Shown: positions 5,047-64,000 of the stretch, piece after piece | Layout: each line of letters starts with the position of its first letter | Numbering within the stretch: position 1 is the first letter of the stretch | NCBI GenBank assembly: GCA_021817785.1 | Contig: JAKAFY010000005.1 | Location: 553-64,552 of the forward strand | DNA: 64,000 bases | From: a bacterium | GTDB taxonomy: Bacteria > Patescibacteriota > Microgenomatia > UBA10105 > UBA927 | Direction of reading: 5' to 3' | The notes under the pieces: generated by a model | Seen by the model: only the letters and a program-made list of their open reading frames with translations | Databases searched by the model: none | What the model was told of the DNA's origin: nothing | Program-made: the position numbers and the translations under genes

Positions 5047-5124
5047 TCTGTATCTATTGTAGCACTACAACGCGATATCCGGCAAATTTATCCATTCAAT
5101 GCATAGCGTTATTCGTGTGCATCA

Positions 5125-9678: not shown

Positions 9679-9762
9679 CTATTTTTCAGCGAATCTTCAG
9701 CGCGCTCTATGGTATGCTTTGCATAGACCGTATTGCGGGGTATACTTATATCCCTCACGCAT

Positions 9763-17583: not shown

Positions 17584-17586
17584 ACG

Positions 17587-20567: not shown

Positions 20568-20669
20568 GGGTAAATTGTATCGTTTTGATGGACATGGTGC
20601 CAGAGAAGGGTTTTAAGGTATGCGATTTGTTGCATCCGTAATTGCGGTGAACGGATACTGATTGTATGA

Positions 20670-21272: not shown

Positions 21273-21290
21273 TATTCCGTCATTACTTTT

Positions 21291-27044: not shown

Positions 27045-27117
27045 GGGCCTGTAGCTTAGTTGGTAGAGCGCCGCATTCGCATTGCGGAGATCAGCGGTTC
27101 GACTCCGCTCAGGTCCA
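27045..27117 (+). tRNA. tRNA-Ala (anticodon CGC)
   Basis: Canonical cloverleaf folded by hand. Acceptor GGGCCUG/CAGGUCC with the G3:U70 Ala identity pair; anticodon loop UUCGCAU; T-loop UUCGACU. CCA is not encoded. Confidence 0.85.
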
Positions 27118-27187: not shown

Positions 27188-27258
27188 GGGCCTGTGGTAT
27201 ACCGGTAACACGTCGCTATGGCATAGCGAAATAAGGGGTCCGATTCCCCTCAGGTCCA
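27188..27258 (+). tRNA. tRNA-Ala (anticodon GGC), atypical
   Basis: Same acceptor stem with G3:U70. Anticodon stem UCGCU/AGCGA with loop AUGGCAU. It has a 4-nt variable region, one A:C mismatch in the D-stem, and T-loop UCCGAUU instead of UUCxAxU. CCA is not encoded. Confidence 0.55.
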
Positions 27259-27517: not shown

Positions 27518-28070
27518 AAAACCAGTTTGTCTAAATTTTTTTGTTTTGTCAATCCCTCAGTTTTTTTGACAGCAGAATACGGGTAATTTATTTCGCCAAT
27601 TATCCCGGGATGGGGGAAGGGTAAGGAATTCTTTACTGAAACAAAAACGTATAGGAAATGCGAATCAGGGATTTTGATGATATAGTTAGCATATGTTTGA
27701 AATGGTCATAAAAACACGTGTTTATGCGCACTTTTTAAAAAATAAAGAACCGATTGCTGAGCTGTACTGATATAGTCGGGGATAGTTGTGAAAACCGCTC
27801 CTTGACAGTGCTTACTAGATATCATCATAGTAATAATACTGCACCTGATGTATGGGGGTTTGGGGACACCGGGTGATTTGTCTTTGAGGCGTGTACTTAT
27901 CTACGATAAACAAAGCAAAGAATACAGTCAATACCCCTGCTTGCCCGCAAGACATTGAACTATCCTCTCATTTGTATCACTTCTTTATAGATCGATATAC
28001 AAATAAATTTCACAACCGTATCGAATCCACTGAAAACGGTTTCGCACAAATCCTGCCGCTCATCCTGCTT

Positions 28071-55000: not shown

Positions 55001-58000
55001 GCAGCAGAACGTTGCCAAAGGAAAAATCGATGCTGCGGTGCTTCGGCAGTTCCGTATGATTTTGACGGAGCGCATCCTGAATGCCTTTATGGCGCATACC
55101 GGCAATATGATGATGACGCCAAAGACACCGTTGTATCAGTACGTGTTTATTTCAATGGCACAAAATCGTTCGACATTTTTACGGTCACTTCGGGAGTTTA
55201 TCGAAAGTAATGCCGCGGGAGAGGTGATCCAGCAGACGCTGAGAGAATATAAGCTCGATGGAATACTTCCGTACCGCAGGACCGGCGATTATCTTGGATT
55301 TTTCGTCGGCGGTGATCCTACGCAACCGCTCGTTCTTGAGAATGTCGACGGTAAACTTGTACAACATACACCATCGAGCCCTGATATTTCGGATACGGTG
55401 AATGCGGCACCTCTCGGAGTAGAAATCGAACAGGCAATTTCTATGGATCCAATCACTCTTCGGGCGTGGCAGGATACGGATTCATTGCCGATTTATATCG
55501 TAAATGCGCCGCAGGGACCAGGCGTCGTATCGGTCATATCAGATAAAAAAGGCGGCATTCCGATCTCCGTACGGCCGCTTGCCGTACAGGATATCATCGG
55601 ACCAGACGAACCAGCCCCCATAGTAACCGTAGCATCATTAACCGGGGATGAGATAGCCACGTTAAGTTCCCTTGCTCCGGATACGTATATCACACTTACG
55701 GATCTTGGCGCACATTTATCGCGGGCCGACCTGGATCGTATGGCCCGTGGGGAAACGATATATCTCCATGGCGCTTTGCACTCAGTCGTCCAGATGTCCC
55801 AGGAGATGAAAGAAGAAGGAGGGGTAGTCCATCAGGTTACCGCCGTGGATCTATCGCCGTTTAGTCTCATAAGTAAAGTGTTAAGTAATCTCCCGGATGC
55901 GGTGAACCTTCAGTCCGGATTCCAGGATGTATTGTCGTACTGGTACAAGCTGGTTGTTGCAGAATTTCGGAGTGTGGGACTTCATGCAGGACTCTTTGGT
56001 GGGGATGGTATGCAGGCGATCGGTAAACTTGATTCGCTTGACCAGTTGGTCGCGTATATGGATTTTGAGAAGTTGTTTGAGCAGGCACTTCGTGACGCAA
56101 AAGACGGCAAGATTTCTCCAAACGCTGCGGCCGCGGCGGCGGTGATTTTGGATCCGAAAAACGGTATCGCCGGTAACATCCTTGTGAAGGTCGGCTTCGT
56201 CCAAACTGAGGGAACACTGCGGATACTGCAAGGCAGTACGGAGTTTATTTTTGATGAAAACCCCGACGATATTTTGGCGACGAGGAAAAAGTTCCAGCCA
56301 GTGGCAGGGGAGAGCTACGACTCGATCGTCGCGCTGAATGCAGCGGCAGCAAAAGATATACAGGAGCGCTTTGGTAACAAATTTGCTTCCCGTGGATTAA
56401 AGATCATCCAGCAGGGGCAGAATTATTTCCTGGTGCGTCAGAAAGAAGCACAAAAAATAACAGTAAGTGAGACGCCCGTGGTTATCCCGCAACGACATGC
56501 TTCGTGGTGGCAACGAATTATGGATCAGGGGAGGCGTGTGATTGGAGGCGTGTGGAATTTCATAAAGACGGAAGCGCTTCGTTTTGCGGTAAGTAGTGAA
56601 AAGGGAAGATTGGTGATATCCGTACCGGGATCATCGAAGCTTCCGAAGGGGTTTGAGAATCTGAAAACGGTGGAAAATCGAATACATCAGACTGCCCCGG
56701 CGTCGTATCGCGCAACGATTGATGCACATTGGACGGAAATCATGACAGCGATTTTTAGCGAGGAAAAACGCTATAGAAACGGGGATGACAGGGGACTAAT
56801 AAACGCCATCAAAAATGCGTTATGGAAATTTACCGATAGCAAAGACGACACAGAAACAGTACAGTTTTTGGCGAATGTCGTACAGGATTACCGTGGTCAG
56901 ACCGTCGGATCATCACAAACACAAACAAAACAATCAGCGCCCCAAGCTGTCAAAGCACAGCCGCAAGCTTCTACGACGTTGGCTAAGCCAATCGTGACGA
57001 TAAGGAATATCGGGCGTAAATATATGCCCAATAAACTTGCGGGTAAATACCATCACGATAATCAGGACGCTGTTCCCGAGAGCGTTAAATGGCATGGAAA
57101 TTTATTTCAACTAGCGGCAGACGGCGTGACACGTGACGAAAACGGGGGCATATCCAAAGAGAGTGGTGTGATTGCATCACAGGCTGTGCGATGGCTTCAT
57201 AATGAGTTGCTCTATCTTTCCGACTCCACGGCAAATATCTTCGCAAAAATTAAACGAGTGCTTGATGACGCGAATGCAAACATGTTGTATAGACCGGCTG
57301 GTGCGCTTGCAACGGTCGCATTTACGTATGTCGATAGCTCTAATGGCGCTGTGTACGGCGCACAGGTGGGGGACGCCACGTCGTATGCCATATCGCTCGA
57401 CACCAATGAAATATATCTTCTGACGGATACGAAAGTCCTCAAAAAGGGAAAGCCGTATGACGGACAGCGCGTGTATTCAGTCTTAAAAGACGGTCAAACA
57501 CTGTCATCGGTACAAGGAGATGAAGTTGAGTCGGCATTTGGCGATAATTCTGTTCTAACAAGCATCCGGAAGAATACATTGCCTTTTGGCAAATATGTCA
57601 TCATTACCGGTTCGGATCAGGTAACGAAACTTCTGGAGCCCTATCTGGTGAAGCGATCTGTTCCGAATAGCGACCTTCAGCGTTTTGAGGCGACGGGAAA
57701 GCTCAAAGATGAGCTCTATTCATTCCTTCGAATATTACCGGGAGCCAAAAAAACAATTCTGGATATATTGAGCGAATTCCAGGACGCAACCGGCTCGCAA
57801 GATGACCTAAGTGTGACGGCTGATGAAGTAGAGATACGCATGCCGTCTGCTTCGTCTACTCTGCGTTATGGTTTTGATGTACAGATGCCGCAGCTTCAGG
57901 AAGCGTATCCAGAAACGGTGAAATGGTGGAAGGATCGGATAGCCGCAGTTCGGAATTTTGTATCCCACGCCTGGAACACCTGGGGCTACTCGCCGCGGGT

Positions 58001-61000
58001 AGTGGCGCTCGGGGAGGATCTCGATGCTGCGCGAAAGACCTATGCCAAGAAGACGATTGTCGATGCGATGGTGGGCGAGGTGCGGATTGACGGCGATATG
58101 CTGTATGCGTCGGGATTCCGTCCGACAAACGGGTTGTACGGCACGACGGATACGCCGGTTCTCTGGATGATCAAACTGACCCCAAGTCAGCAGAAGTTGT
58201 TTTCCGGATTAAGCCAGGAAGAGCGCCATACGAGAGTCGTCCAGATGATACATAATGCTACCGAAGTGATCGTCGACCAGCATGGGTTCCAAGCCGACCG
58301 GCGTGTGTTTGCCGAGCCCATGCAGCACATCATGGCGCCATATGGAGTAGCCGGCATCAATCAGGTTGCGGTCGCGCCTACCTTGGGTGGCGGGGAGGGG
58401 AGCTTCTCCGGGAAAACATCATATCTCTATGAAACCATGAAAGCCCAGTTTGCTGATTTTTTCACCGGGCTTGCAGGCGTCGTAAATGTAGATGGTGTGC
58501 GATTTCGGTTTATCGGCCACTCGACCGGCGCGGATATCGTCGCGTCACTTCTCCATGACCGGCCGAATTACGTGAAACCCGGCACCGATTTCCTCCTCGT
58601 GTCGCCGTATGTCGAGACGTTTGAAAAACAGATCATTGCGTTTCATTACGCGCCGAACGACGTAGTGTGGGGACCCCTGTATCAGTTTGTGAATACACGG
58701 TATGAAAACGTCTTTGTGTCCGCGTTTCAGCGTTTTCTCATCGTTGCTGCACGGTTGACCGGGCTTGACCGCATCATCATAGACACGCGGTTAAGTGGTT
58801 TGGCGGGTGATCCGGCTGTTGCCGACGCCGCAAGTGTGCATGGCATATATCAGCAGGCGATCGAAGCTGCGATGCGTTGGTATAACGACGTCCTCACACA
58901 GAAGCCGAAGCTCGTATTGGATCAAACTGTGGAGGAGTTGCGAGCCCGAGGTGTCGAGATTACTACTGTTGCATCGTTTGACGGCGGAGATCATATCGTC
59001 AATCAACAAGAGACAGAATTTTTTGCCGAGGAACACAATATACCGATGAAGAATTTTCCCAACAGCGGCCACTATCTTCGTTCAGAAGACTGGCAGGTAC
59101 TCGGGGATGCGTACAATCATAGTAGCGACATACAGGAATACGTCGTGAAGACGCTCCTGACAACGGCAAAAGACGTAACTGTTGCACAGTGGGAAGTCGG
59201 GGATAAAAGTCTCCTCCAAAAATGCGCGGCAAACGGGTGTACGACCGTGGCTGCGGTCAACGCTCTTCCCAACGGGCGCGATTTCCAACCGGAGCTCGTG
59301 TTTGGACATCGGGATGCGGTGTCTAAAGATGGGTATGTATTTGTTGCCCGCGTCATGATACTCGGAAAACCGTATGTCATCGATTTTATGGCCGAGCCGG
59401 GGAAAGTGGTTATATTGCCGTGGGATATGTACCAGAAGATGTATGCATTTACGCCCTACGAGTCCCCAGATCTCGTCCCGTCGTTCGGCTTCCCAGTAGA
59501 TCAAGAAGCAGATCTCGCCCGAAAGTTTTGGCCGGAACTGAAGTCACGGCACACGTTGAGTCTGACGACTCTTACGTCGCTTGATCCCAATGTCACAGCG
59601 GCAAAGGCCATGACGTTTGAACAAGGAGTGAAAGTGTGGTTTGCCGCGGCAGTCGCAGACACCGAAACACCACTGATACAGGAAGAAGTCCAACCTTCAC
59701 AATCAGATTGGATTGCAGCCCTTGAAGAGCCGGAATGTTGGGCGATGGCGCCGGTCGCGTATGCACAAGGCCCGAGTGGGGGAGGAAAGCCATGTTCTGT
59801 ACAGGTCCGCGCGGCGTTGAAAGCGCTCCCGGCGCTTGGCATCGGATCGGTCGTAAACGTGTGGCACTACAGTAAGCAGTTTGTGGGGTGGGCCGGTCAG
59901 CTGTGGCAGGGGATATTTCGATTGTTATCGCAGAATGATGGTGGGTATGCAGCTCCGATAAATCAGATAAAAGCTGTTACAGGTGTCATACGTAGTGTAG
60001 GCACGACAGGTGCAATGCACTCTGCGCTCGATCAGGTGTCGCAAATTATTGATCCCATAGAGCGGGAATTTCCGTTTCCGAACGAAGAGATAAAACAGTA
60101 TACAGACGCGGATTACCGAAGTATGTTCGGAGGCACTCGAAAGCAATTTATCGCTGCATTTAATGATTTAACACAAACTCTTTTGAGAGTAGCACGTACC
60201 GATTCCAATGAAGAAGTGCGGCGAAGATCGACCATTATTCTTTCGTCAATGCAGCAAGTGCGTTATACGTTTGGTATGACGGCTCAGACATATACGCGGT
60301 ATAACTTTGATGAGTGGTACGGGGCGCTTGATAACGATATGCTTCGGTTGTTGCGTTTACTTACTGGATTGTGGGTAACCCGCGGTCAGGAAAAGGTTCT
60401 TGCCCAGAAAATGCTTACAGATCACGAAGTGCTCCGAAAAAAATATAATCTTCCCGCTGATGATCTCTACGAACTCAATCCCACAGAATATGCAAATAGT
60501 CTTGAGTCACTCAGGCAGAAGTATGATATATCGGTTACATCAATGCGGGAGCGTGATTTTAACGCAATTTTTACACCTGGAGATGAAGAACACGCTGCGG
60601 GTGGAGCGACGTTACCCAATGGATCAATAGTTCTAAAAGACCGCATCATGAATACGTGGAGGACGGATCCTACGAGTATGCATCTTTATGAACATGAATT
60701 GATTCACGCGATTCAAAAGAAACTTTATCCGGGATTGTCTCATGAAGAGCAAGAATACGAGGCATATGTCGCAGAAAGGTATTTAATTCATGAATTACAA
60801 CTAAGTCAAGATAAGGGGCTTGAGTTGTTTATGCGCGGTTTCCAGACATCAATTATTGCGCTATACGCGAGGCAAGGAAAAACGCCACCATGGGCTTCTA
60901 TTATTATTCCAAGGGATATTGAGTTTTTGGAGCCTGAACAAATGTTAAAAGATATAGAAGCGGAATTCCCTTCTCAACGATATCAATTTGACCGGCCGAA

Positions 61001-64000
61001 TTTGCCTGAACTTCAAGTTATTAATGAACAAACAATGGCCCGATGGGACGCGTTTTTGCAGCGCCTTCGCTCTCTGTGGCAGGGGATGAGGCTAGGAGAA
61101 ACACAGACGAGCACGGTAAAAGTAGATATTCAGAGTCCAGTAAGCGCATTATCAGCAAGTGTTTTTAGTTTGGCGAGGCTTACTACTGTTCCTTCTGATG
61201 CGACGCTATTGGCGAGTCCAAACTTTTTATCAACATTTCGTAACGATATACAAATAGAAGGATGGCCAGGAGATAGCTGGAAAGAAGCATTACGTCGGAC
61301 ATTGGCGCCGACGCGGTATAGAAATATACCATCCACACAATTGCCAGACTCACTTATTACTTATACATTACGTTCCTACGGAAGAGCAGATTTTGTTATA
61401 CCAACAGCGCCTCTCATTGATGAAAAAGGTATTCAGTTTCCTGTAATTCAACGGAAAGGGATCGGAGCGGCTCAAGGTAATATACAAATTTCCTCAGATG
61501 CATTTGGTGCCCCCGTGGAGAAACGACAGGACGTAACAACATACGGATTTACTGGTCAAATGTCATTTCAAGAGGATGCTCAAGTAACAAAGGAATGGGA
61601 AGACGTCGGGATGCGAGTCCGCAAGCCAATCGCGGCATTCGATTTAAATCAGGTATTTGCTCGATCGGTTACATCAGGGAAGGGAAGTGGAGCTTTGACT
61701 CCGGAATTGTTACAAAAAGAGGGGTTTGATATATACGGAAATCCTGTTATTGCGCTTTGGGCGAGACGGAATCCATATACCTTTCAGGATTTTATAGGAT
61801 TGACTGATGATATGCGTCGGCTTCCATCGCACCCGACTCAGCTTTCCAAAGACGCCCTCAGAGAGCGTTTGGATCAGTTTTTGCAAATCCAGGCATCATT
61901 TTTGCAATATGATTCTGATCCTGAAGCACGGAGGATTGCCTCATTACTGGCTCGGGGAAATGGAAGCGGACTTAACGAATGGATGAAATGGTTATCATCT
62001 AGATACGGAGAGCAGGAAGGGAACAAAGTTCTCCATGGGTTGGTTGATGGCGAACAACATCGTCAAAACAGAGATTTTGGAGTAGAGTATACCGATTTAG
62101 CTGATTTAGCACATCACAACTACGGATCATACGAACAAGCTCCGCGGATGGAGCAGGCCGAATTGGCGAAAGAGGTCATGTTTACATATTTGCCTATCGT
62201 AGAAGTGCAGGTCGCATTTAATCTAGCAAACAATAAACCATGGGATACAGATTTGGATACGGTAAACTCAAATTTTTTCCGCAACTTTTTTGCAGTGATC
62301 GATACTAAACCCGATGTGGCTAAAAGTGTCTCTCAATATTTTAAATTAGAGCCTATGTCTGAGTACATCGGGGGGAGTGGTCTGTACGGCATAAGTGATA
62401 GCTATTTTGTAAACGATTCGACACCTCCGGTTGTTGTAGGTGTGCCATTGAATATTGTGAGCGCTTTAGAGGAGAAATTGTATATGCAAACTATAACAAT
62501 AAATACGCTCAATTCTCTCAAAATACTGCCCTCCGAGTTTCTAACTAGAGTGTTATATAAGTCAATTTATGCGATATTTTCTATTGGCACGCATGGTTAT
62601 ATAGGGGTGATCCGTTTAGCTGATAGATTCCAATCGCAGAGTGGGAATATAGGACAAAAGTTATATAGTGCGTTTTTTCCGAATGGGAGGAATAGATACA
62701 CAGCGGATGCAAGACGGTATATACAAACATTAGGATCAACGCAGGCAGTCATTCGATTTGTCGTCGCCTCTCTTTCATCTTCAGATAACAATCAATTTAC
62801 AAACATGCCGTACAGGGCTATAGAATCTAACTTTCAGTATCTATTAGCAGTTAACGTTCGTGAACAATTGCATATACCAGAAGATAGTTATGACTCATAC
62901 CCCATTGCTGCCGAGGTTATGCGACTTACTGGAATTAATACACTCATAAATCAAATATACGAAGCGATTCCAGAACAAAGACCTGTTATTTTACGCGCCT
63001 GGCAACATGCATCTCAAGATCCTTGGTGGCAACCAGCCGTAGTCGGAGCAGAACGATTCTGGCAGAGTATTTTGAATTCAATAAACGATCAGTCATTACG
63101 GAGCACAAATAAACAAGTGATGGCAGTCGGGGAAATGACCGACCGTATCTTCGGCTTTTTCCGCTCTCTGTGGCAGGGGATAGTAAACCATTTCATGCCG
63201 GAACAGCAAGCCCCGTTTACCCAAAGAAGACCGCAATTTGTAAAACAATTGATTGAACAACAATATGCCATTGTTGTACGTCCTCCAGTGTTTGGTATAC
63301 ATAAATATCCACTTGAAGGGAAACCGCAATATCAGTTCAAACATTTTACGAGTACCGATGTTATCAAGTTAAAGCTTCAAGATGCCTCTGGTATTGTGAA
63401 AATTACGGATTTAGGTACTGCAGATGCTTCATTTTTATACGAAACATCTCGCGTCTGGAAAGATCGCGTGTTTGTAACAGGAATTTCTGCCTATAATTAT
63501 TCTCCAGTAGGCTTGCCGTCTCGTAATACACGGTATATAAGTGGCGAAGAAGCACAAATGGAGACGCTTTCCCAGCGCAATACGATAGCACACGGATCGC
63601 AAGACGTTATATTTGCTAAAAATACATTAAATTATGCCGTCGATCCACTGGGCACATTGTCTGAACTGTTTGAATTATTGAAACCAGGAGGTTTTATCGT
63701 TGTTGATAATTCATTTCCACCGACTACTATTTCCGGTCTTACTTCACAGCAGTATGGCGGCATGATCGCGTGGATGAATATGCACGGATATCGTATAGTT
63801 TCAAATTGGTCTTATGATCCTGTAAGCCGAACCAATCAAGTTAATAGTTTTATACTCCGAAAAACAACAGAGCAACCCCACTTGTCTTGGCCGCTCCAGT
63901 ATGGGCAACAGAGATTGGCACCTAATTCTTCAGTATCTATTTCATATGTCATTGATCCAAATATTCCGATTTTGCATAGTCAATCGATCTTTGATGGGAT
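28071..64000 (+). CDS. giant multidomain protein, N-terminal >=11,976 codons (3'-partial; ORF runs off the window)
   Basis: Frame (position mod 3 = 0) is open from the TGA at 27885-27887 to position 64000. The first ATG is at 28071 (MVFALSTFLIVW...). In-frame alternative starts are GTG 27891 and TTG 27972. Frame continuity was checked by hand at 35280, 45900, 52140, 60000 and 63960. No + strand frame-0 ORF appears in the supplied track, which is consistent with a single unterminated ORF. All minus-strand ORFs across these 36 kb are short. The domain-like motifs are listed separately in the findings. Confidence 0.85.
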   Translation, partial: MVFALSTFLIVWRVGQQRQTGDLRQFATGDVYQNCVGLSGLDLTICQETGVRPTQPPYIPPPSPTNAPPAATKTPDQICAAQPQNQQDQCYLNLRKPTATAYVVPPHVTFPPTPIPTDRVWCTLRCKGDAGCISGCSLGLPYSTPVPTVPTKVPTVVTLAPIHSISEGIGNGCSDPKLTADQRSKCLAAAVGNISVAPSPVSGNFSKSCQACVSVRGSVGACASACGLTSSVTPAPSLIASVPTLKVTPAPQVGARIGFGVGTGAFTIPIVTQASIVSTVMNLWNQYISHTTPTPAPAPLTATGGNSNVNASAVKPTTLIPGSGCSILPWDSNNCKNCPGGKWHPGWTASCDANPAPPANQNLSNNAPSTVPSPASEIAHPVNQSPDNLTIVPSTVPPPVVTPIVPTVPPNPGTSVTPAVTPIITPMPGAGLACSGSNVTVGNVAVGGQKYGPNGDVTRKCTYDPTTHETAWVECPGCKVTVGTPEVMAAYKAQNDAFDAQLNMLTQNILNCMSSGKDQVTCQAEYLYGLGKQSPAYLGLLQDQISVQIKTSEAQATYNQKMEQHDLCIAQHQDSPNQCRGYEQAALMALQQVGYDTTDAKTMAALTTAYQTYIAQKASNLFLSAEVAYAGCVAQQKQDAGINCSQYQKNATDAMTYGGTPTAEQRAARLLRYSNYQKATDIWNTPNSVVCPTVDCDPEQRKQQRVAALNMDPNDAQLAHDNWFANIAYSLQYGTVGTIERVGKILATKPSDCKDTASCLDVLKNTLTGEQYAQVKTRVDQLALADINNAPDTTALSFAKDHKNDPMFKNVDTNDINAVRLAIDNSLPQNLRRASLAHLAQPASSGGTTAASTETPLAKAYAAYRNDLSLDASTRTLLGKPSSDPSLTVAEANFYTTQQNNLNTLCSHVSVQDCALYSAQFKAGTIVPSDAAAAYQKSSLSFSFRIPTFLTTSQSTKKVGAGKSGTVTVTTPLSKVQTGSIDINIAPVQWMDSAFNWIQRQQIALTPFRPGDYAQKNTEAQLVLLATDPAKQKAVFAALDQTADYRKFAASLHASNVDPHEAYITQQLTKFYQNEGYLQNAGKFAPTTVDNSKQDYVTLVMRGDVNVSSAVSSIGLGKMVGGVYANTLTAVGDTVLSPILKLTHLTPTIKVANLVSGGVTPEENQTADTVVTALIRTNSAAWDAYVQQKSKDPEYLAWAQNNPKDSSIVAFAKWQYAQSLALTENMKAGGYELSSAQDLFTKSPTWLTDGVLAGKINIGDIKSILSASQQSVTTDLNRNLTILETNNTNLPTSSYQARRQAAFAQLQTSVLNAQADALVKVYQESQNTPEVLAALQSKLTAQHITTDPLVYQQQQLKAYLLNPDTTFLLGSGGTTVDVAGIMDGTYDMAAASRAYNDLNKRPLESFVFAINKFEKGSYLQGQQLLSDPNSSLYDKGRAVVMMTAKPVGTVLMLAAPPLRVLQIGVNAVTAADVLAIGGEALGFQMTGSSAADTAVACTLRPGMDAAGCATNFGMMVFAGWSTLSSVNAVNSIAETAMIKSGQNVGFVERFMNSNKLLSGLVPDGDKALIQAAALRNGVIPATADNIAALESAVAKAYAPVAHNAFAEGARNALGTAVFGSAAIQACSQEGLNADCLSRASLAFLSLSRTILPSQVVSNTNALAGQTVMRADQLTNAALAGLSCSAAALGKGSLDDCITTAMMSGMTFAGEAVQKAQSSSNGLTLKNPFAAKELAIKDLSLLENMKATDPPIIMDGTPVNFLDRTVAADSVRARLVQATIESRIIIAQGSALAAGFKTLPAADQTIAQHAAVTAGDAWNSLFTDTGALRPGVADQVMGARQALTIASSELARETALLTDPRNGAQQAVDRLLGVRSKDAAALADFHTAREAYLELARSAEYDPATGVLRNGETLAIAEQRLARAGETLSLVNASRGEIWYATHLNQTRDALAVINRQIDIETLQQQLLLDQAKLPDVRRLAREQADAAQIHLRTLEQTNASPEVRAIAQEALRLATERLSAAEDVATHIQNPADIALYRTERANALSTLQARAETIQGEMTLLAAGQKAAQTFGGRLAIAVLGLPDQPTPFAELIGRTPEQIVQARTTAITEVGKRSLSNIEDLVNETIDVMRASSDGTITRERAIEIAMDELSATDAKGNTKIYTDALAQAKEALMKQGITNETTLARESMRIARTVADQFVANNEAIRAALAKGESPDVAFAIRQSTASKVSTAIVNFIEQNTVGRIKVYQIRQENKAMLSQLRVALKAEYKPLVEKLANINNDRGGISLSQETKPGANDALIAYDTHKSVKPGKLVVDDIKLTDTGRKAGLTEKDVTFLKDNLQSIQGVQGYTAHTEQVDYILAFLESLGDGNARRIYGAVMGLGKTDFVMPATTLLQAQLSDQTQVIVFPEDKLMNQYLGGNSQKMLDLFKAKIDPKGEGLVLVVDPSKPPSAEAIAKAKVIITTRDIAFLLDATDASGLAMRAKWRGAFIQSDEGHWTLNATESFRTSFGKQTQIMQTDSGKMKRVAIASVEQLQSVRELIDLAKTGKLTDAEVRRNADKTGSFTDPTEQEILREWLQKKKNAGQLPPALEAALQAGSVADMRAKITEFFDTNASARTGPLGAEISVIGKLADLFAATPKVEYGAASFDRNGTLVDMIAPLDMTKATGRMYQGELEQLLYNTIGAEIVGKNIDLTNLVSNSQSRDINFGLLMLEASGFAIYTGTPELIAPLYKSAYGIDLTQYGLNAHEVVTKQINTGLASQQSQVFQSTDDALTNRLHKGEPVAIVNLRDTLYRTNESAFETIQRHLDTGDRLYVAKAAGGFEEYVRLADGSMQRVAVYTDKTGINASIANHITEPIVVMYEFGAHTGVDVSLPDNTRELVLTDTNSRINETVFDQGVKRVRPDTALVDVVHVGGDGTIESVYRQLDVQQRQDMALAEVQFKETLLRNSVDQLLSRLNAVQTTTAGGITQGVDYAARLKALQDQWQVTKDLSYDLSTHNISAQDKLQRTLDQVKSMYGEIYASIQSDVTLRAAFAVSAGDTKDLAINLQPDPKGVHKLSAVSSLADVVTYINKSTDPKVIADAGVTFTERGPSAEAVTADARNVQPTNIIADGDAITAETIAAENQARQDALAKNSGNGNNPTLPGSGPQTPGGSGPVQPGGAGGGPANNGGGGTTNTGGGGGTTQSNGGGSTQNTGSVNTGSNTTGPTTVSQMTSQARQAVIRAAVDTSGTQPVVRAGISPQQTLQALAAATIEAQNLRNNPFSRIRILPIARTLERQEQAELALADALQGPVQAAIEQELGVTLSGSGLPAIASARDSAVSYLAALAIGDADVAQSHLTDLNKAIENVAAAQGSAYTGRQTADIAPHIVAAFLPPSAVTAKPIIQTISGQINTNTVSNPSTWRATIGIMWSGIKHYGFNPNPLTLFTIFGSTTNRWDVLGQVGGWIMFRIAPLFVPGGQFVAVPLLAYDGVRLITYPFRALARFIFTRPMIRDIVIGKSVAQLALRWHLNQTMLNILAGSRNGFFESYVNAVPGWPKGTTFFKGLIGTFTWASRFQAMWGYDAFRLLRRYTQQINHIADTDMPLHQLPVTQPNYWDTNGFLLGFVPRALVNATPRNNLFGYLLTRWLVPIVITSLVAPLLMLIPVVGPYIAVMVVAIIISMPHSYDSHRLWHEGGWQHADIWNTKKGHITPWASWGATVTITVPAPQQFSKGVLEAGHTLVRGATITVTRRDGSVETAILDTVSNDRIAANNSWTIRSAADNSVIGWVTQGDITVNMSPAIASQPVVPIPSGGLSAADIDAFAEALTGPQVQTLFQREIAFLPLGCSECTDFVKQSINTHLAAAQQKIVAGDLAGAIAQLDQALHEIDMHVKNHTGGPVNTMLFNLVRYVILRHQAALYTALGDTKHAADVMAIARSYRVKALIEIDTKIHAYNAGDTRFEAINDALSYYTAQREKDFSDILLMQDANQAQQALDDLTAEISNRPTNPTLWDRVTAMAARILVKQPDPLAGYATEIANANAHIAARRNPPVRHEARVGDTYRFAPSAYPANVNALTGASIGGDTTSKILIPGLGLGLYASFDNGRWQLHHQDRFKSGVFINTTPVPVNKQGPLSSGDTIVIGDVRLVVTIDSDNSLMIHIEQLVSGQPAQHPVVHKNDTQHFAANDFTTPDQVVTLGINIYSTIRFDPGQAPSIQPHHAHVFRNSGSWIITSADTQATGTIRRPDGSEYPLQGLTGLHDGDILYLGSDVVITVNVDPTTHDLTLLETTIGDSVEVARNKTEARAKLQAIIDLGKNPAGYDNAKLSAYVSDLQTVADGLAQADQAVFGTNTTALSGQLHQAALELGQLVVGYHTRVYNNNAPFFDFSRVQQMEDDVNTIPELTKEEKAQVWDGFEKTVYRDYIGSVYGSIAGMETEMYGSSHSLPPSDLDSMSLADLQREKTMAEGTFAVTNDAYKEFLRDKNRFETNRKAIQAKARAMADAMNTAFAKGQMTKNIRVEVSQEGIIQLIPADNSPLLSLRIGLDTPQEYISDQRDDGAVHIILGTTGLSVAPAILNIESRNVGSGVGNEALSIIETVVKRAGFGGMLVQGNTSVLSFGFWSTNEYWVADTKQNLDELQRYSRARQMYKIFGKALPKPTQEVSRREQINRLQAQIFGWLALARSINMSSDELRTSMSPDDLQKLVIGKTNIYIAGALVPDGLPLAWQEPIILALTDLEAGVPPLGMYDTSVRVLNRPEVHNALIQLIGAIKAQTDGGGEYLKALGEAIVAGANNPKEMAKLLNNLTSYWTTPAKILKDSSLPGRQQFIDTYGPVIAKGESGNQFADALYTHYSALKSEEQDALAALFADDGTMRTPVAHAIQTLKPSYAQKRREDSLTVAARDALLPEIKTLHAFTFLSDDEIKNEIPTDITNQVVEGAYVMDTNVSGELSALAPQQQAVVRNGFDVRADIVRDAWAKSDISPFGALFDTNVLFSSLVSQIADLHEADAVSQFRAALSAFPSDLYASMRARDTVNKPDAYQIQAEIHAKYVAATIRGKISSSFPMQEQRLLAFLNNGLLENNNHPPFPNLESLLKYLLIGDVPSDQQFDEASLRERVASMDTGVTGPLMDTLAKAIQQMLPLLDGIVARSEPLPAVNIAPGTTTTTHVALLRAMHDYNDNAPRSMRFTPASDFTLRPIEDQVNEFLTFVENRTGQWTRQTSPREGKVGVANTFNGMTFAEGKAPLIIGTSKSNTIWFDSAVAKSVAEKHAEIYLELHSDSPNKLWIRAVSDTTPITIFDHRGEKLRTQSGAVLGDGYTIQLGSDVVLSVKYDNYSYQFTLTPTKVGEAITADALDQLLAKLIPGYDTQKLPPEQVTAIRKAVYGLVPAGAAAESLDAALKQPAVQEFLTTLQTNINALTKAQLPNVQAIIGNVQTDYQTVLARLPIFIRVLGSVNIADVNNVTIALTSMNAAIQVAETNPQLSALAVASSDRNSFVEDQSVINLLRGIILNAFGTHAIIVSELSPDTYSSLVTSLGEYVWSLAVKTPSLDGFWDADRGAILIQKALDEKDNRTPVLPEFVELTNQAVGSDKVLYMEVYAEEILTNREILYFLDLARTRILAQQQKLEKYNADWRRLQLAAEQDPAIKIGKELEKLYPLESNALMMQSAGGSLQLDEANRAISYITGVPIEEVQKGNYPKGTKPDLTPEVIRSRLVAHGDYDHVLSETEIGRLMIAEDEKDHYDIMRTRTPRFAPVGGTLDQNPLVNLLFGLTGKRYRIPADNAALTEEDVVVAFERNYDFLVQDYALPTLISSSGKPDVYFNALMVVAQENGVEVKLVSDPSNPQPQARGLFHGTPTNKTIYIPTLDSNSNRELAHELVHALQFIKHPGMSRLMREFEAYLISDYPKNRVPKVGYLRKFLQIIADTVGPTYVAVGQPIPWEFQPVDVSNSAPEGSDISTPVALDQLLAKLIPGYDKLKKDQQTAVRKTIYGLVPGISFGENIDDALQQPAVQEFLTTLQTNIGALTKAQLPNVQEIIGNVQTDYQTVLARLPIYALVMSSANVTDVPKALIAAQKAIDEVEHSPHLSVGAQTAASASVFTDDMKFSVTENVMRASLGSQGYTGTAEDIALIHQQYGISDDELNTLITALWTYVWNRESREIQIRDQLNSILSDASPEFKALPEFERDDIIEALRISYPDNTTLAAVATDFSESGKRAKELHALVTLLAQKTSINDYVLTSIMLHTPQNPETWSTLYDTSIKVSALLEQVSESNRQDQSKQAYQVLLQAIKLIGNDQTVWSVMQREADRFINVIAILAAKRSGGITPKDAQALYTALRIPVAQKTKYDGLLNKSDLSVLGAPEADSKWAAFDALAVVYFRKVPEAPSEDPRVQEIRGLYGRFVRSLSTVQGVYVIKMSSEWAAVLSLLKGGSIVYVPNGALDTKFEPKAVVDAATFQSGIREAVDYMNFPSKEAYARAKITVWILDKMLSVEQYYASKNTLSVLQQKSGELGQIDQQISALLRTDLSSGTTQESLQQIYAALYALLPADSGFPADDTSEIDALISSINTFGQPKEVRQVVTHLATTFGIPDEQIKQVVDQVVANLKDSTAAGTVPAWKAIEDALNAKPKFAKDVLPLIKNQFAALQKAQADVSRIQALLTIYARTLISIPLGKIAEAPTVLSQEQKAIAALEESSSGWVSDATTIDEFLADNTRTGTTNEVRIQTGLKDTKILQPKDDKTPNAFGISLTNYTRIVSDIGQYLWKKGEDVRTKAILAMVEPYDAQRDASYISRIEQAAKTNGLQIKVVGYIAKGAQGYVYLVQLLNAKQVNIPEYVAAKADDLAQKLGVNDAPHEYELAGKLRQAEQTGEFDISDPSKLYTVDPYAVDAKNKVLFEELVLTQKWDDESQDAKISRAMQFGHRTYLVRQAGFYNQDKIGDYLADINNKLHFFDSSSYGTNPKLALDANSRFITRIVEALYPASGATVENIFSAQFTNDTNRLNVLLQSRLFVSLPKIIQYNILLLLGKISSNSGQNLNSAAAFKELLLDMLSVTANNHIDSKFIPAELHGEYQQQAIIHRFSRFDNENILGMAGITIEQGANAEDKLLISNIVQSPSLNLIYSWHDFNVGVPYEKYYAGIFINLTTQEKIDHIIGLDLSQFDLSPEDYAVMRVIQWHAQYVRYGFMMTGHPDVNNASAMNPSESAVAQQLRTYGVIKVLKKMGSRMELEAAQGHQQAVDKELLPSMRAFQDAFVQNIFGGDKRKLNKQDFPLTPEQVKKDIDSYVPNTANTVSTQLTALISDATPLKTDEQKAQIKAVVDATLAEMDAVTLPQDISALKPAISVIYGDGTSLVQLPDFLKRLPVFIRELVAATPKEMEKLLIGTNTAVTAMKNFPIGFNNPAGTTEDAFVKDVKNRTFVRDMLVDGHLYPANYSGIPITDAIIEQIHTDYGLTSTEFDGVVTAILHYLYTPTEEGGTESILGASLISQFGITADADKQAVQNSLRDGLTGVTLSGPLVTALSDPKSAPSQFTGTVIKELRADGATAPAISRILPTILWVYDHAAADKKPLVATTLIPKINEVDAANAIMWKTFVDGNATEQYFIDTGSVVVGTSFDTVLSSLLPDQAADAHSKVVNAYLRYARIKHGSRVTTELQSFLGYVTQPEHVPMPPTAPQVFKDMQKTVEESPSQTTAYEVQAINQLASLYRTDLTVKRTGGAEGKAPMVEVNGKELLPIAGHMYRYIYKLDDTHVLKFDMGGQNESELELEALNDNVRAVSPILGWGIASDGSVFLIEEYSDVVISQSDNTQLRGDIQGIIELWNSAYVNSSVAEQQAFLHEYGLQSADEINQLEQIVKVDEQIHLDDFAMASQNKPESGQIGRGRISHRLQLIDFGQNSVRSGYAPYLRSFTHLQEIVDKIVADRKSGSVGGEVSALATQAWDAKNEAWVDAAIEALSHEGFTDWNGLLVSYFRAYRGPKDEMLTPKQVEDAVNHYEPTFLISILLKADRNQEVVDPLFADLTRQIRLLLPFDKEPDVQLATMRMVLTILHGIKAGAFPAETLVRFIGEADANVSGAFRVFASSIKQPSVQNVFMQMSDVVDEASSFQDEITMQMAMLFEIVRSGDIAHLPKVATTLPSVLQKYQTRTAGVPIGDNAVGYGAAMTKIHTQFGPDTLRMRDASLEIMLVQTNEKKERLENIIDDMIRELGVQSNNPSQRKRYQQLFVNILSFMSRSDQRATNRLSAKIAHEVELLDHALNDTVESQKILAEIAVDAKPLLPTLFATPAGRSEVREAVIQQTVDTVLRRRLPLAASDDEATKKNPTYPRYTSALREWHNAALLYIEHQHGAPSEAIAVLHAFRDAAHANITNPRDRALRLIREAYTKRNSDPVISSALTPKEQDLLFGHYLYYLFNQQDRIAQFPTLDNVIGRDNLAFVGSVRRDDTTQANALAAKLKTSPLLLQLDKDLGPIVAELQAIKSADTTSIYANIKFGMEQHFSMTERYDLIVNLLDSDQAIFDTAIKWFTDKGFAHVKEDFGTWDGGGSSTTNASGHLAQNAAPAANDINAQIAKFVGDIQAAGYPANYPVVLNGVVQDKSVVLKIDVSRLQAQLEKISTAANQSFDITISLGNAEVLFGSIARSGGVTRINPYDRSGARTISNVRFVLRQHIQSLDLALRDKANVDLAVLNKVLYGFLSSQTGPTVTLTQDQVLQLIDAMRSEMNLQDVPGPVKFALGAVGINDKSMAAMTIEPKFSNGIWSVAIQLAKFSFTAEIHTSQTSDQGFEIAGLPGALTRFVTPAEMMRSINKRLARHGVSRPISKLDIQKDGSIVATFEGQQSQIPRAQGQVRTGFAISLGVAAAYILKIPVVLTAAHAVQSILIAAGHITIPIYSWFPDMQHQISALFQPVTLQYALSLVGISGARPAPSKVPDILSGPTHTMSMADKRQMLSLIPQGFLQAIVTQVLRKPGATFANFRATVDRYRFVTVMFDDHRPGFAALQQNVAKGKIDAAVLRQFRMILTERILNAFMAHTGNMMMTPKTPLYQYVFISMAQNRSTFLRSLREFIESNAAGEVIQQTLREYKLDGILPYRRTGDYLGFFVGGDPTQPLVLENVDGKLVQHTPSSPDISDTVNAAPLGVEIEQAISMDPITLRAWQDTDSLPIYIVNAPQGPGVVSVISDKKGGIPISVRPLAVQDIIGPDEPAPIVTVASLTGDEIATLSSLAPDTYITLTDLGAHLSRADLDRMARGETIYLHGALHSVVQMSQEMKEEGGVVHQVTAVDLSPFSLISKVLSNLPDAVNLQSGFQDVLSYWYKLVVAEFRSVGLHAGLFGGDGMQAIGKLDSLDQLVAYMDFEKLFEQALRDAKDGKISPNAAAAAAVILDPKNGIAGNILVKVGFVQTEGTLRILQGSTEFIFDENPDDILATRKKFQPVAGESYDSIVALNAAAAKDIQERFGNKFASRGLKIIQQGQNYFLVRQKEAQKITVSETPVVIPQRHASWWQRIMDQGRRVIGGVWNFIKTEALRFAVSSEKGRLVISVPGSSKLPKGFENLKTVENRIHQTAPASYRATIDAHWTEIMTAIFSEEKRYRNGDDRGLINAIKNALWKFTDSKDDTETVQFLANVVQDYRGQTVGSSQTQTKQSAPQAVKAQPQASTTLAKPIVTIRNIGRKYMPNKLAGKYHHDNQDAVPESVKWHGNLFQLAADGVTRDENGGISKESGVIASQAVRWLHNELLYLSDSTANIFAKIKRVLDDANANMLYRPAGALATVAFTYVDSSNGAVYGAQVGDATSYAISLDTNEIYLLTDTKVLKKGKPYDGQRVYSVLKDGQTLSSVQGDEVESAFGDNSVLTSIRKNTLPFGKYVIITGSDQVTKLLEPYLVKRSVPNSDLQRFEATGKLKDELYSFLRILPGAKKTILDILSEFQDATGSQDDLSVTADEVEIRMPSASSTLRYGFDVQMPQLQEAYPETVKWWKDRIAAVRNFVSHAWNTWGYSPRVVALGEDLDAARKTYAKKTIVDAMVGEVRIDGDMLYASGFRPTNGLYGTTDTPVLWMIKLTPSQQKLFSGLSQEERHTRVVQMIHNATEVIVDQHGFQADRRVFAEPMQHIMAPYGVAGINQVAVAPTLGGGEGSFSGKTSYLYETMKAQFADFFTGLAGVVNVDGVRFRFIGHSTGADIVASLLHDRPNYVKPGTDFLLVSPYVETFEKQIIAFHYAPNDVVWGPLYQFVNTRYENVFVSAFQRFLIVAARLTGLDRIIIDTRLSGLAGDPAVADAASVHGIYQQAIEAAMRWYNDVLTQKPKLVLDQTVEELRARGVEITTVASFDGGDHIVNQQETEFFAEEHNIPMKNFPNSGHYLRSEDWQVLGDAYNHSSDIQEYVVKTLLTTAKDVTVAQWEVGDKSLLQKCAANGCTTVAAVNALPNGRDFQPELVFGHRDAVSKDGYVFVARVMILGKPYVIDFMAEPGKVVILPWDMYQKMYAFTPYESPDLVPSFGFPVDQEADLARKFWPELKSRHTLSLTTLTSLDPNVTAAKAMTFEQGVKVWFAAAVADTETPLIQEEVQPSQSDWIAALEEPECWAMAPVAYAQGPSGGGKPCSVQVRAALKALPALGIGSVVNVWHYSKQFVGWAGQLWQGIFRLLSQNDGGYAAPINQIKAVTGVIRSVGTTGAMHSALDQVSQIIDPIEREFPFPNEEIKQYTDADYRSMFGGTRKQFIAAFNDLTQTLLRVARTDSNEEVRRRSTIILSSMQQVRYTFGMTAQTYTRYNFDEWYGALDNDMLRLLRLLTGLWVTRGQEKVLAQKMLTDHEVLRKKYNLPADDLYELNPTEYANSLESLRQKYDISVTSMRERDFNAIFTPGDEEHAAGGATLPNGSIVLKDRIMNTWRTDPTSMHLYEHELIHAIQKKLYPGLSHEEQEYEAYVAERYLIHELQLSQDKGLELFMRGFQTSIIALYARQGKTPPWASIIIPRDIEFLEPEQMLKDIEAEFPSQRYQFDRPNLPELQVINEQTMARWDAFLQRLRSLWQGMRLGETQTSTVKVDIQSPVSALSASVFSLARLTTVPSDATLLASPNFLSTFRNDIQIEGWPGDSWKEALRRTLAPTRYRNIPSTQLPDSLITYTLRSYGRADFVIPTAPLIDEKGIQFPVIQRKGIGAAQGNIQISSDAFGAPVEKRQDVTTYGFTGQMSFQEDAQVTKEWEDVGMRVRKPIAAFDLNQVFARSVTSGKGSGALTPELLQKEGFDIYGNPVIALWARRNPYTFQDFIGLTDDMRRLPSHPTQLSKDALRERLDQFLQIQASFLQYDSDPEARRIASLLARGNGSGLNEWMKWLSSRYGEQEGNKVLHGLVDGEQHRQNRDFGVEYTDLADLAHHNYGSYEQAPRMEQAELAKEVMFTYLPIVEVQVAFNLANNKPWDTDLDTVNSNFFRNFFAVIDTKPDVAKSVSQYFKLEPMSEYIGGSGLYGISDSYFVNDSTPPVVVGVPLNIVSALEEKLYMQTITINTLNSLKILPSEFLTRVLYKSIYAIFSIGTHGYIGVIRLADRFQSQSGNIGQKLYSAFFPNGRNRYTADARRYIQTLGSTQAVIRFVVASLSSSDNNQFTNMPYRAIESNFQYLLAVNVREQLHIPEDSYDSYPIAAEVMRLTGINTLINQIYEAIPEQRPVILRAWQHASQDPWWQPAVVGAERFWQSILNSINDQSLRSTNKQVMAVGEMTDRIFGFFRSLWQGIVNHFMPEQQAPFTQRRPQFVKQLIEQQYAIVVRPPVFGIHKYPLEGKPQYQFKHFTSTDVIKLKLQDASGIVKITDLGTADASFLYETSRVWKDRVFVTGISAYNYSPVGLPSRNTRYISGEEAQMETLSQRNTIAHGSQDVIFAKNTLNYAVDPLGTLSELFELLKPGGFIVVDNSFPPTTISGLTSQQYGGMIAWMNMHGYRIVSNWSYDPVSRTNQVNSFILRKTTEQPHLSWPLQYGQQRLAPNSSVSISYVIDPNIPILHSQSIFDG
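44082..44366 (+). repeat. intragenic duplicated module, copy 1 (~285 bp)
   Basis: Encodes ALDQLLAKLIPGYDTQKL...AVQEFLTTLQTNINALTKAQLPNVQAIIGNVQTDYQTVLARLPIF. The core 44233-44366 is about 90% nt-identical to 46051-46190. Confidence 0.85.
45909..46190 (+). repeat. intragenic duplicated module, copy 2 (~282 bp)
   Basis: Encodes ALDQLLAKLIPGYDKLKK...AVQEFLTTLQTNIGALTKAQLPNVQEIIGNVQTDYQTVLARLPIY. It includes the 25/25 identical run ccgcggtgcaggaattcttaaccac. Confidence 0.85.

Follow-up and report, generated by a model that had tools for sequence, protein, structure and literature searches.

The giant open reading frame

The DNA analysed here (the window) is a stretch of 64,000 nucleotides from a member of the Gottesmanbacteria (Patescibacteria), and its + strand carries a giant open reading frame (27888..64000) of at least 12,037 codons without a stop, the 3′ end of which lies beyond the window. 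The preceding stop is found at 27885-27887, and from 27888 onwards the frame runs without interruption to the window's edge, thereby occupying more than 36 kb of a genome whose size, as suggested by related assemblies, is about 1 Mb. We number the residues of this protein from its first ATG (28071 = residue 1). Nevertheless, given that the full N-terminal membrane helix (ILPLILLMVFALSTFLIVW) straddles this ATG, the true start is probably located upstream of it, at TTG 27972 or GTG 27891. An ENA contig contains a 5,470-aa fragment (P0003) that is 99.98% identical to residues 4596-10064 according to BLASTP.

Apart from the hydrolase module discussed below, only FHA and methyltransferase domains were detected in the window protein with Pfam, and domain searches found no SecA_DEAD, glycosyl hydrolase, or GGDEF domains, RTX-type repeats, or CPD autoprocessing protease. 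Other modules had been guessed from motifs, namely a helicase-like region (~2,370-2,500), a GNAT-like region (~4,560), a kinase-like region (~7,720-7,880), a PP2C-like region (~9,690-9,920), a Cys-protease-like region (~10,385-10,450), and an HExxH motif at ~10,880, and none of them found support in Pfam or PDB sequence searches. The hydrolase module is among the very few footholds for assigning functions to this protein, whose more than 12,000 residues are almost wholly unannotatable.

Anatomy of the hydrolase module

The module corresponds to residues ~9,999-10,363 (58065..59159, + strand), with boundaries defined by the extent of similarity to homologues. It begins with an N-terminal extension (58092..58256, + strand) formed by a beta hairpin (MLYASGF ... 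TPVLWMIKL, which includes the family motif G-T-P-x-x-W) and a two-helix insert before strand beta3; this extension is conserved in the alignments that we call A3 and A4, and in the AF2 model it appears as E7-11, H15-22, and H26-38 (model numbering), with a pLDDT of 63-88. Next come strand beta3 (EVIVDQ) and the predicted oxyanion-hole motif H10071-G10072-F10073 (58263..58289, + strand). A family-specific loop with the consensus V-A-P-(S/T)-L-x-G-x-x-G-(T/S), derived from A3 and A4, follows beta4 (58365..58409, + strand), and its residues V10099 and G10107 are invariant.

A preliminary description of this DNA had read an alpha/beta-hydrolase catalytic arrangement in the region, with a GHSTG motif at 58515-58529, an Asp at 58989, and a His at 59070, and it advised looking for an oxyanion-hole HG upstream of the serine. 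Translation of the + strand frame through 58515 (...VDGVRFRFIGHSTGADIVASLLHD..., ...VASFDGGDHIVNQQ..., ...NFPNSGHYLRSEDW...) places all three elements in a single frame exactly to the base, and the spacings that had been claimed, 156 residues from Ser to Asp and 27 residues from Asp to His, are also exact. The HG was found at 58281-58286, 79 residues before the serine, in the context VIVDQ-HG-FQAD. It lies directly after AF2 strand E42-47 (model numbering), it is kept in every homologue that covers that position, and it aligns with the HG of the D14L esterase, 5h3h, and 7dq9.

The nucleophile elbow, G10149-H-S10151-T-G10153 (58515-58529, + strand), with Ser10151 as the predicted nucleophile, sits between strand E121-127 and helix H129-140 of the AF2 model and aligns with the nucleophile of YbfF, 5h3h, and 7dq9. 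Between beta6 and beta7 there is a predicted helical cap, or lid, of ~105 residues (58626..58946, + strand; from AF2 and alignment A2), which AF2 models as helices within H163-269 with low confidence (pLDDT 29-57). This cap contains a subfamily motif conserved in A2, D-R-x-I-x-x-x-R-L-S-G-L-x-x-D ... V-H ... Q-Q ... R-W (58764-58880), whose many polar residues (R, D, H, Q, Q, R, and W) give no clear pointer to an acyl-chain pocket.

Asp10307 (58989-58991, + strand) is the predicted triad acid, and its context, G-G-D-H-I-V, fits the canonical G-x-x-D-x-hydrophobic-hydrophobic pattern found after beta7; the role could also fall, with lower likelihood, to D10304, which precedes it by three residues. 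The predicted triad base is His10334 (59070-59072, + strand; context N-S-G-H-Y), located in the loop before the last helix of the AF2 model, H315-326. The order of nucleophile, acid, and histidine (S10151, D10307, and H10334) is the canonical order of alpha/beta-hydrolase triads. A thioredoxin-like similarity around NSGHY...DAYN (E=0.1) was rejected, since there is no CxxC and the segment coincides with the loop that carries the His and with the final helix of the hydrolase.

In a protein of this length, motifs by themselves are weak evidence for a hydrolase. For instance, G-x-S-x-G alone is observed 5 times in the giant protein against 3.3 expected, which is not significant. The combined HG...GxSxG...D...GH pattern, at canonical spacings, is present a single time (10071-10334), and when the residues of the same protein were shuffled it arose in 2 of 300 trials. 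The decisive evidence that the arrangement reflects more than chance is that the catalytic motifs are conserved in homologues.

Relatives and conservation

When 1.84e9 representative proteins were scanned in full with HMMER, and metagenomes were scanned as well, about eight relatives came to light, and all of those with a taxonomic label belong to the Patescibacteria. The protein scan yielded P0001 (7,694 aa, E=3e-39), P0002 (E=3e-14), P0004 (phmmer E=3.3e-8 in the 1.8-billion-protein library; BLASTP 2e-18), and P0006 (E=5e-4), and further members were found in the metagenome loci L085 and L086. BLASTP aligns residues 6253-6598 of P0001 to 9999-10349 of the giant protein, residues 250-583 of P0004 to 10010-10363, and residues 107-443 of P0006 to 10024-10349, and residues 3325-3672 of L086 also align to 9999-10349. 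A protein of 2,331 aa (P0005) gave six short matches to query residues 299-335 and was not counted as a relative because it has no BLASTP match to the giant protein. Several other searches recovered little: the word-indexed homologue search found no relatives with the window domain or with the P0004 domain as query, and only P0006 with profile A1, while a scan of genome contigs with the domain, a first metagenome scan with a single sequence as query, and a scan of viral contigs found none.

Family members are either standalone proteins of 450-590 residues or modules within giant proteins. In fact, the module (~9,999-10,363) is the only segment that the window protein has in common with other giant Patescibacteria proteins, and one giant Patescibacteria relative has two copies of it, L086 holding such a second copy. 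The family moves in modular form among giant proteins that are otherwise unrelated. Inspection of the sequences of the standalone relatives showed no signal peptide, and their gene contexts offered nothing informative.

Alignment A4 contains 7 sequences at 17-35% identity and just 7 invariant columns, 4 of which correspond to G-x-S-x-G plus the His. The position of the acid is occupied by D or E throughout: the window sequence, P0004, P0006, and the second copy in L086 have D, and P0001, P0002, and the first copy in L086 have E.

Family models and structural matches

The preliminary description proposed abhydrolase HMMs as a check, and their outcome was divided: the window sequence falls below every Pfam and NCBIfam abhydrolase model, while its relatives P0004 and P0006 pass Pfam cut-offs. 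With the window domain, Pfam returned only chance-level Picorna_P3A and Ligase_CoA_2 matches and no abhydrolase, NCBIfam gave no abhydrolase match, and phmmer against the PDB found nothing significant, the best match being the receptor-hydrolase D14L at E=1. Given that the window sequence alone has no significant match in these three collections, assigning the fold depends on transitive and profile evidence. P0004 scores 30.4 bits against PF12146 Hydrolase_4 (gathering cut-off 27; residues 305-557) and 26.7 bits against PF12697 Abhydrolase_6 (gathering cut-off 26.3; residues 349-570), and these two matches jointly span the HG, Ser, Asp, and His. P0006 matches Abhydrolase_6 over residues 150-431, and it also scores 29.1 bits against PF02089 Palm_thioest (cut-off 26.8), covering only profile positions 3-122 of 254. 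The equivalents of the acid and the His in P0004 and P0006 fall inside the Abhydrolase_6 matches, and the Pfam matches of these two relatives take in every catalytic position.

Searching the PDB with the A4 profile gave the solved abhydrolase 5h3h as the best match (E=6.9e-4), with the HG and the nucleophile aligned, and all matches at E<=0.1 (11 of 11) were alpha/beta hydrolases, as were 38 of the 40 at E<1 in another PDB profile search; P0004 alone had no match in the PDB. Among named families, those closest to the module are Hydrolase_4/monoglyceride lipase, EstV-type lipase, and esterase YbfF.

Fold prediction, the other check that had been proposed, also pointed to an alpha/beta hydrolase, which is the fold of all 50 best Foldseek matches in the PDB to a model with a pLDDT of 54. 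This AF2 model was built from 5 sequences and has a pTM of 0.56; its N-terminal half reaches a pLDDT of 65-88, while its C-terminal half, including the Asp and His regions, beta7, and beta8, stays below 50. A single-sequence AlphaFold run gave a pLDDT of 39 and was unusable. The order of elements in the 5-sequence model is canonical (strand-HG, strand-Ser-helix, cap, strand, His, helix), with strands at 42-47, 75-80, 121-127, 150-154, and 273-275 (model numbering) and helices between them. The best Foldseek match had E=4e-5 and TM 0.45/0.53, and the top 50, with probabilities of 0.92-1.00, include haloalkane dehalogenase, human and mycobacterial monoacylglycerol lipases, ABHD6, FphE, and APT1.

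Predicted activity and alternative explanations

Taken together, conservation among homologues, the Pfam passes of relatives, the family profile, and Foldseek support the arrangement that had been read from the sequence. The module is homologous to alpha/beta hydrolases, it conserves the HG, GxSxG, D/E, and H, and it is portable. We estimate a probability of roughly 0.85 that residues ~9,999-10,363 form an alpha/beta hydrolase with an intact predicted catalytic apparatus, belonging to a small and very divergent family so far seen only in the Patescibacteria (CPR). The module is best read as a predicted active Ser-His-Asp hydrolase with a helical cap. It would most likely be of the esterase or lipase type, acting most likely on a carboxylic ester of a lipid kind (in the manner of a lysophospholipase, a monoacylglycerol lipase, or an esterase), as the nearest named families are lipases and esterases and the helical cap is large.

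The established chemistry of the superfamily suggests how such an enzyme could work. His10334, oriented by Asp10307, would deprotonate Ser10151 at the strand-turn-helix elbow of GHSTG, and the serine could then attack the carbonyl of an ester, a thioester, or possibly an amide. Phe10073, which follows H10071-G10072, and Thr10152 would stabilise the oxyanion through their backbone NH groups, and water would then hydrolyse the acyl-enzyme. The cap between beta6 and beta7 would cover the site and set its specificity.

That the motifs are a coincidence in a very long protein, in a region that is not an alpha/beta hydrolase, might be argued from the expected frequency of GxSxG, from the lack of a direct Pfam match for the window sequence, and from the low confidence of the model. 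This explanation is effectively refuted by the homologues that pass curated Pfam cut-offs, by a family profile that matches solved abhydrolases (E=7e-4), by the uniform fold of the best 50 structural matches, and by the conservation of the catalytic residues, whose columns vary least among the homologues, and the rarity of the full pattern among shuffles also speaks against it. A different possibility is that the fold is genuine and used in a non-hydrolytic manner, for instance as an acyltransferase, a D14/KAI2-type ligand receptor, or a structural or protein-interaction module. The alpha/beta-hydrolase fold is known to have been reused for such roles, the best single-sequence match in the PDB is D14L, albeit at E=1, and D14, KAI2, and cofactor-less dioxygenases are found among the Foldseek and profile matches. 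However, the Ser, His, acid, and HG are kept throughout the relatives, whose identities are 17-35% and which include both L086 copies, and such retention is what catalysis demands; moreover, D14 and KAI2 receptors are hydrolases too. We thus consider a non-hydrolytic use very unlikely.

A more serious question is whether an active hydrolase of this kind would be a thioesterase (acyl-protein or acyl-CoA) or an S33-type aminopeptidase instead of a lipid esterase, in which case it might have host-cell proteins as its targets or take part in the processing of the giant protein. P0006 scores above the gathering cut-off of PF02089, a palmitoyl-protein thioesterase family, the Foldseek matches include the APT1/APT2 acyl-protein thioesterases and an NRPS thioesterase, PF12146 is described as "serine aminopeptidase, S33", and the conserved polar residues of the cap fit a polar or peptide substrate. 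On the other hand, the Palm_thioest match involves a single relative and only the N-terminal half of the model, the window sequence matches none of those families, and most structural and profile matches are carboxylesterases or lipases. We regard a thioesterase or peptidase as a possible but less probable outcome than the esterase or lipase-type hydrolase.

The biological setting may suggest a role for an esterase or lipase-type hydrolase. The module may work alongside other enzymatic modules in a giant protein anchored to the membrane of an episymbiotic bacterium. CPR bacteria lack lipid synthesis and show an enrichment in lysolipids (PMC7242380), and the CPR predator Vampirococcus has been proposed to capture host lipids by means of a secreted phospholipase (PMC8080830). 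One could speculate, while rating the idea as rather unlikely, that the module is a (lyso)phospholipase-type effector, presented or delivered by the giant membrane-anchored protein, with which episymbiotic Gottesmanbacteria harvest or remodel the membrane lipids of their host. A host-facing lipid esterase would have a direct bearing on how CPR bacteria acquire lipids, and a phospholipase effector would provide a concrete Patescibacteria-specific enzyme family for both their lipid supply and their enrichment in lysolipids.

Comparison with known systems

The superfamily is already known, and assigning a sequence to its fold is routine in itself; nevertheless, a small alpha/beta-hydrolase family restricted to the Patescibacteria, and missed by curated models, can be defined from this module, and while the fold of the module is ordinary, its place within a chain of over 12,000 residues is not. 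Like Abhydrolase_6, Hydrolase_4, and family-V-type esterases (PF12697, PF12146, and PF00561), it has an HG following beta3, a G-H-S-x-G elbow at the junction of beta5 and helix C, a helical cap inserted downstream of beta6, the acid behind beta7, and a G-H ahead of the final helix. Unlike the members of these families, it is too divergent in the window to score against curated models, it has an additional N-terminal hairpin (GTPxxW) and a two-helix insert before beta3, it carries the APSLxGxxGT loop and the cap motif DRxIxxxRLSGL...VH...QQ...RW, and it is embedded near residue 10,000 of its protein.

The window protein as a whole resembles the "Archaeovorins" of Omnitrophota (bioRxiv 10.1101/2023.11.21.568195) in being giant and mostly unannotatable, with membrane segments and scattered enzymatic modules, in this case FHA, methyltransferase, and hydrolase. 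It differs from the Archaeovorin type in organism, in SecA_DEAD, and in its set of modules. Its host belongs to the Gottesmanbacteria (Patescibacteria) and not to the Omnitrophota, its visible part comprises at least 12,037 codons as against 30,000 or more residues for Archaeovorins, and SecA_DEAD, an Archaeovorin hallmark, is present in the relative P0001 and was not detected in the window protein. The modules reported for Archaeovorins are a SecA_DEAD-like motor, glycosyl transferase/hydrolase, peptidase, methyltransferase, and NUDIX, and alpha/beta-hydrolase, lipase, and esterase domains are absent from the domain list of that paper (bioRxiv 10.1101/2023.11.21.568195).

A further parallel is offered by the MARTX toxins of Gram-negative pathogens, which differ from the window protein in their size (about 3,500-5,200 aa), their RTX-type repeats, and their CPD autoprocessing protease; in addition, nothing named MARTX appeared among the matches in PDB searches with the module or family profiles. 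The ABH effector domain of Vibrio MARTX is a PI3P-specific phospholipase A1 (PMC4640098), and, like our module, it is a Ser-Asp-His alpha/beta-hydrolase module that a very large protein carries as cargo along with other enzymatic modules, a likeness that is one of architecture and probable mode of use only. If the module did prove to be a phospholipase effector, a portable enzyme found in several giant proteins, and twice in one of them, would represent a CPR analogue of MARTX-style effector arrays.

A divergent alpha/beta-hydrolase module

The segment of the giant protein spanning residues ~9,999-10,363 (58065-59159, plus strand; residues numbered from the ATG at 28071, boundaries set by the extent of homologue similarity) represents a highly divergent, Patescibacteria-restricted new family in the alpha/beta-hydrolase superfamily, and we put the probability of an alpha/beta-hydrolase fold with an intact predicted triad at about 0.85-0.9. 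The plus-strand frame through 58515 reads ...VDGVRFRFIGHSTGADIVASLLHD...VASFDGGDHIVNQQ...NFPNSGHYLRSEDW... and contains a nucleophile elbow, G10149-H-S10151-T-G10153 (58515-58529), followed by Asp10307 (58989-58991) and His10334 (59070-59072). The preliminary description had proposed a hydrolase triad from these residues, and its positions and spacings (156, then 27 residues) are reproduced on the translation within one frame. It had also suggested looking ~70 residues ahead of the Ser for an oxyanion-hole HG motif, and one is present 79 residues upstream, as H10071-G10072 in VIVDQ-HG-FQAD (58281-58286, plus strand). No other substantial ORF overlapping the module region was found on either strand.

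The G-x-S-x-G motif is not significant by itself, as it occurs five times in the giant protein with 3.3 occurrences expected by chance. The combination of HG, GxSxG, D and GH at canonical spacings occurs once in the protein and arose in 2 of 300 shuffles, but conservation among homologues is a stronger argument against chance than these counts.

Homologues and conservation

On its own, the module sequence matched no family in Pfam or in NCBIfam, and its sole relevant match among PDB sequences was the esterase/receptor D14L (E=1), in an alignment that already matches HG to HG and GHS to GHS. When 1.84 billion representative proteins were scanned with HMMER in filter-only mode, six matched: P0001 (7,694 aa, E=3e-39), P0002 (a 241-aa fragment, E=3e-14), P0004 (587 aa, E=3e-8), P0006 (454 aa, E=5e-4), P0003, which is a fragment of the giant protein itself (99.98% identity across 5,469 residues), and P0005, which was dropped as a relative since it gave six short matches to one query segment and no BLASTP match to the giant protein. 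Two further loci came from scanning metagenome contigs with a degenerate pattern: L085, which holds a partial module copy, and L086. All labelled relatives are Patescibacteria (MCL4200211.1 for P0001; HEX9008192.1 within the P0006 cluster), and no relatives were found in scans of GTDB species-representative genomes or of viral contigs.

Known abhydrolase families, to which the module sequence itself gave no match, are matched by two of its homologues. P0004 exceeds the gathering scores of Hydrolase_4 (30.4 bits against 27, residues 305-557) and Abhydrolase_6 (26.7 bits against 26.3, residues 349-570), while P0006 exceeds that of Palm_thioest and matches Abhydrolase_6 at residues 150-431; in both proteins, the matched regions take in HG, Ser, Asp and His. 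Searches of PDB sequences with profiles from successive family alignments point in the same direction: alpha/beta hydrolases made up 28 of 30 matches for the first (A1), 38 of 40 for a later one (A3) and all 11 matches at E<=0.1 for the last (A4), whose best match, the abhydrolase 5h3h (E=6.9e-4), places HG opposite HG and Ser opposite the nucleophile. The hydrolase reading is supported by these two lines of evidence together with the conserved catalytic residues and the Foldseek results.

In A4, which comprises seven sequences with 17-35% identity to the window module, only seven columns are invariant, namely Gly, Ser and Gly in the elbow, the catalytic His, and V10099, G10107 and Q10126. For the elbow, the window module has GHSTG, the P0001 group has GQSTG and the other members carry GHSMG or GHSLG; HG is kept by every sequence covering that region. 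Four members (the window module, P0004, P0006 and the second copy in L086) have D as the acid, and the remaining three (P0001, P0002 and the first copy in L086) have E.

Predicted structure

A single-sequence AlphaFold2 model was unusable (pLDDT 39). With A1 (five sequences), the model reached pLDDT 54 and pTM 0.56, with values of 63-88 across most of the first 150 residues and below 50 in the Asp and His regions. In model numbering (residue i is protein residue 10,023+i), it predicts strand 42-47 followed by HG at 48-49, a helix, strand 75-80, helix 97-114, strand 121-127, Ser128, helix 129-140, strand 150-154, a helical cap at ~163-269, strand 273-275, Asp284, His311 and helix 315-326, and this modelled order is that of a textbook alpha/beta hydrolase. 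The fold that had been anticipated is also recovered by Foldseek against the PDB, with 32 matches at E<=1e-3 and alpha/beta hydrolases as 50 of the top 50, including haloalkane dehalogenase 8ooh (E=4e-5, TM 0.45/0.53), monoglyceride lipases, ABHD6, FphE, APT1/2 and D14. Specific to the family are a hairpin at the N terminus that bears a G-T-P-x-x-W motif, two helices inserted ahead of beta3 and a conserved loop past beta4, APSLxGxxGT; a cap motif, DRxIxxxRLSGLxxD...VH...QQ...RW, is specific to the giant-protein subgroup.

The giant protein and its surroundings

The ORF carrying the module (27888-64000, plus strand) runs for at least 12,037 codons without a stop and continues past the window end. 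The upstream-encoded RadA is 75-83% identical to RadA from Candidatus Gottesmanbacteria MAGs, which identifies the organism as a CPR/Patescibacteria bacterium, and since related assemblies are contigs or chromosomes of ~1 Mb, the gene would take more than 3% of the genome. Such an ORF is extraordinary for a genome of this kind and almost unannotatable; for the CPR predator Vampirococcus, the largest proteins reported are <=4,163 aa (PMC8080830). In the stretch 27891-28110, the first ATG, at 28071, sits within a predicted membrane helix, ILPLILLMVFALSTFLIVW, and translation probably begins at TTG 27972 or GTG 27891; the product would then have a short, basic tail in the cytoplasm and one membrane anchor, followed by the Pro/Thr/Cys-rich region at residues ~40-480, presumably extracellular.

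Pfam recognised only FHA domains and a class-I methyltransferase fragment: two FHA domains at residues ~4,030-4,290 (40158-40940; 27.7 bits, above the cut-off), a borderline third at ~5,200-5,340 (43668-44090; 19.7 bits), and a SAM-methyltransferase-like segment in the last visible part of the ORF (63228-63998; Methyltransf_11, 23.1 bits, cut-off 21.2), all on the plus strand. The FHA regions contain paralogous segments (residues 4181-4350 and 5230-5390), ~200 residues are duplicated at 50% identity (5338-5526 and 5947-6140; 44082-44648 and 45909-46490), and residues 6002-6139 and 7312-7451 are more weakly related. Hydrophobic hairpins occur at ~3,625-3,672 and ~8,830-8,870, and a Gly/Thr/Asn/Ser-rich low-complexity linker at ~3,135-3,215 (37470-37720). 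Two paralogous HExxH segments (29% identity), HELVHALQF at ~5,870 (45651-45884) and HELIHAIQK at ~10,880 (60693-60938), may be zinc-metallopeptidase-like modules, but Pfam and PDB sequence searches gave this no support. Nor did those searches confirm resemblances noted by eye to PP2C just upstream of the hydrolase (DG..., GD..., SD..., DD...; 57100-57830), a Cys/His/Asp protease just downstream (59220-59420), a Walker-A/DExH helicase (35100-35600) and an HxDD...DFG kinase (51200-51700).

Elsewhere, the window starts with a 23S rRNA 3' end (1-268) and a 5S rRNA (476-592), and the giant ORF is closely preceded by two tRNAs (27045-27117, 27188-27258). A cluster of large polytopic membrane proteins of 501, 594, 578 and 759 aa (14318-23570), resembling ArnT/PMT-type glycosyltransferases by eye, adjoins genes for a putative glycosyltransferase (12236-13366) and a methyltransferase-like protein (13543-14313), and a putative LysM plus M23-like peptidase gene lies at 25820-26920.

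A portable module and its possible function

P0001 is encoded at 1111-24195 of a Patescibacteria locus (GCA_023382895.1, JAHDXG010000014.1) and is annotated solely as 'GNAT family N-acetyltransferase'; we found SecA_DEAD and acetyltransferase matches, the former being likewise reported in giant Omnitrophota proteins (bioRxiv 10.1101/2023.11.21.568195). In L086, on the 144-kb metagenome contig Ga0172374_1000017, an ORF of >7,005 codons is open throughout the 21-kb locus (1-21017) and carries two module copies, at residues 3325-3672 and 4866-5214 of the locus protein, the second more divergent and retaining HG, GHSLG, D and S-H. The module is the only segment that these two giant proteins have in common with the window protein, which makes the hydrolase a portable component of such giant multi-enzyme proteins; it is also found as a standalone protein.

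The best-supported reading of its activity is standard serine-hydrolase chemistry, in which His10334 and Asp10307 would activate Ser10151, with an oxyanion hole made up of the Phe10073 and Thr10152 backbone NH groups. Among named families, monoglyceride-lipase-like Hydrolase_4, EstV-type lipase and esterase YbfF come closest, and because of these and the large cap, a carboxylic or lipid ester is the favoured substrate class; the module may instead be a thioesterase or a peptidase. That the substrate is a lipid-type ester is a tentative suggestion, at clearly less than even odds. A role in the use of host lipids is plausible, given that CPR bacteria, which lack lipid synthesis, show an enrichment in lysolipids (PMC7242380) and that a secreted phospholipase has been proposed to capture host lipids in Vampirococcus (PMC8080830). 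In function, the closest analogy, one of architecture, is with the MARTX-toxin ABH effector, a phospholipase A1 specific for PI3P within a multi-effector giant toxin (PMC4640098).
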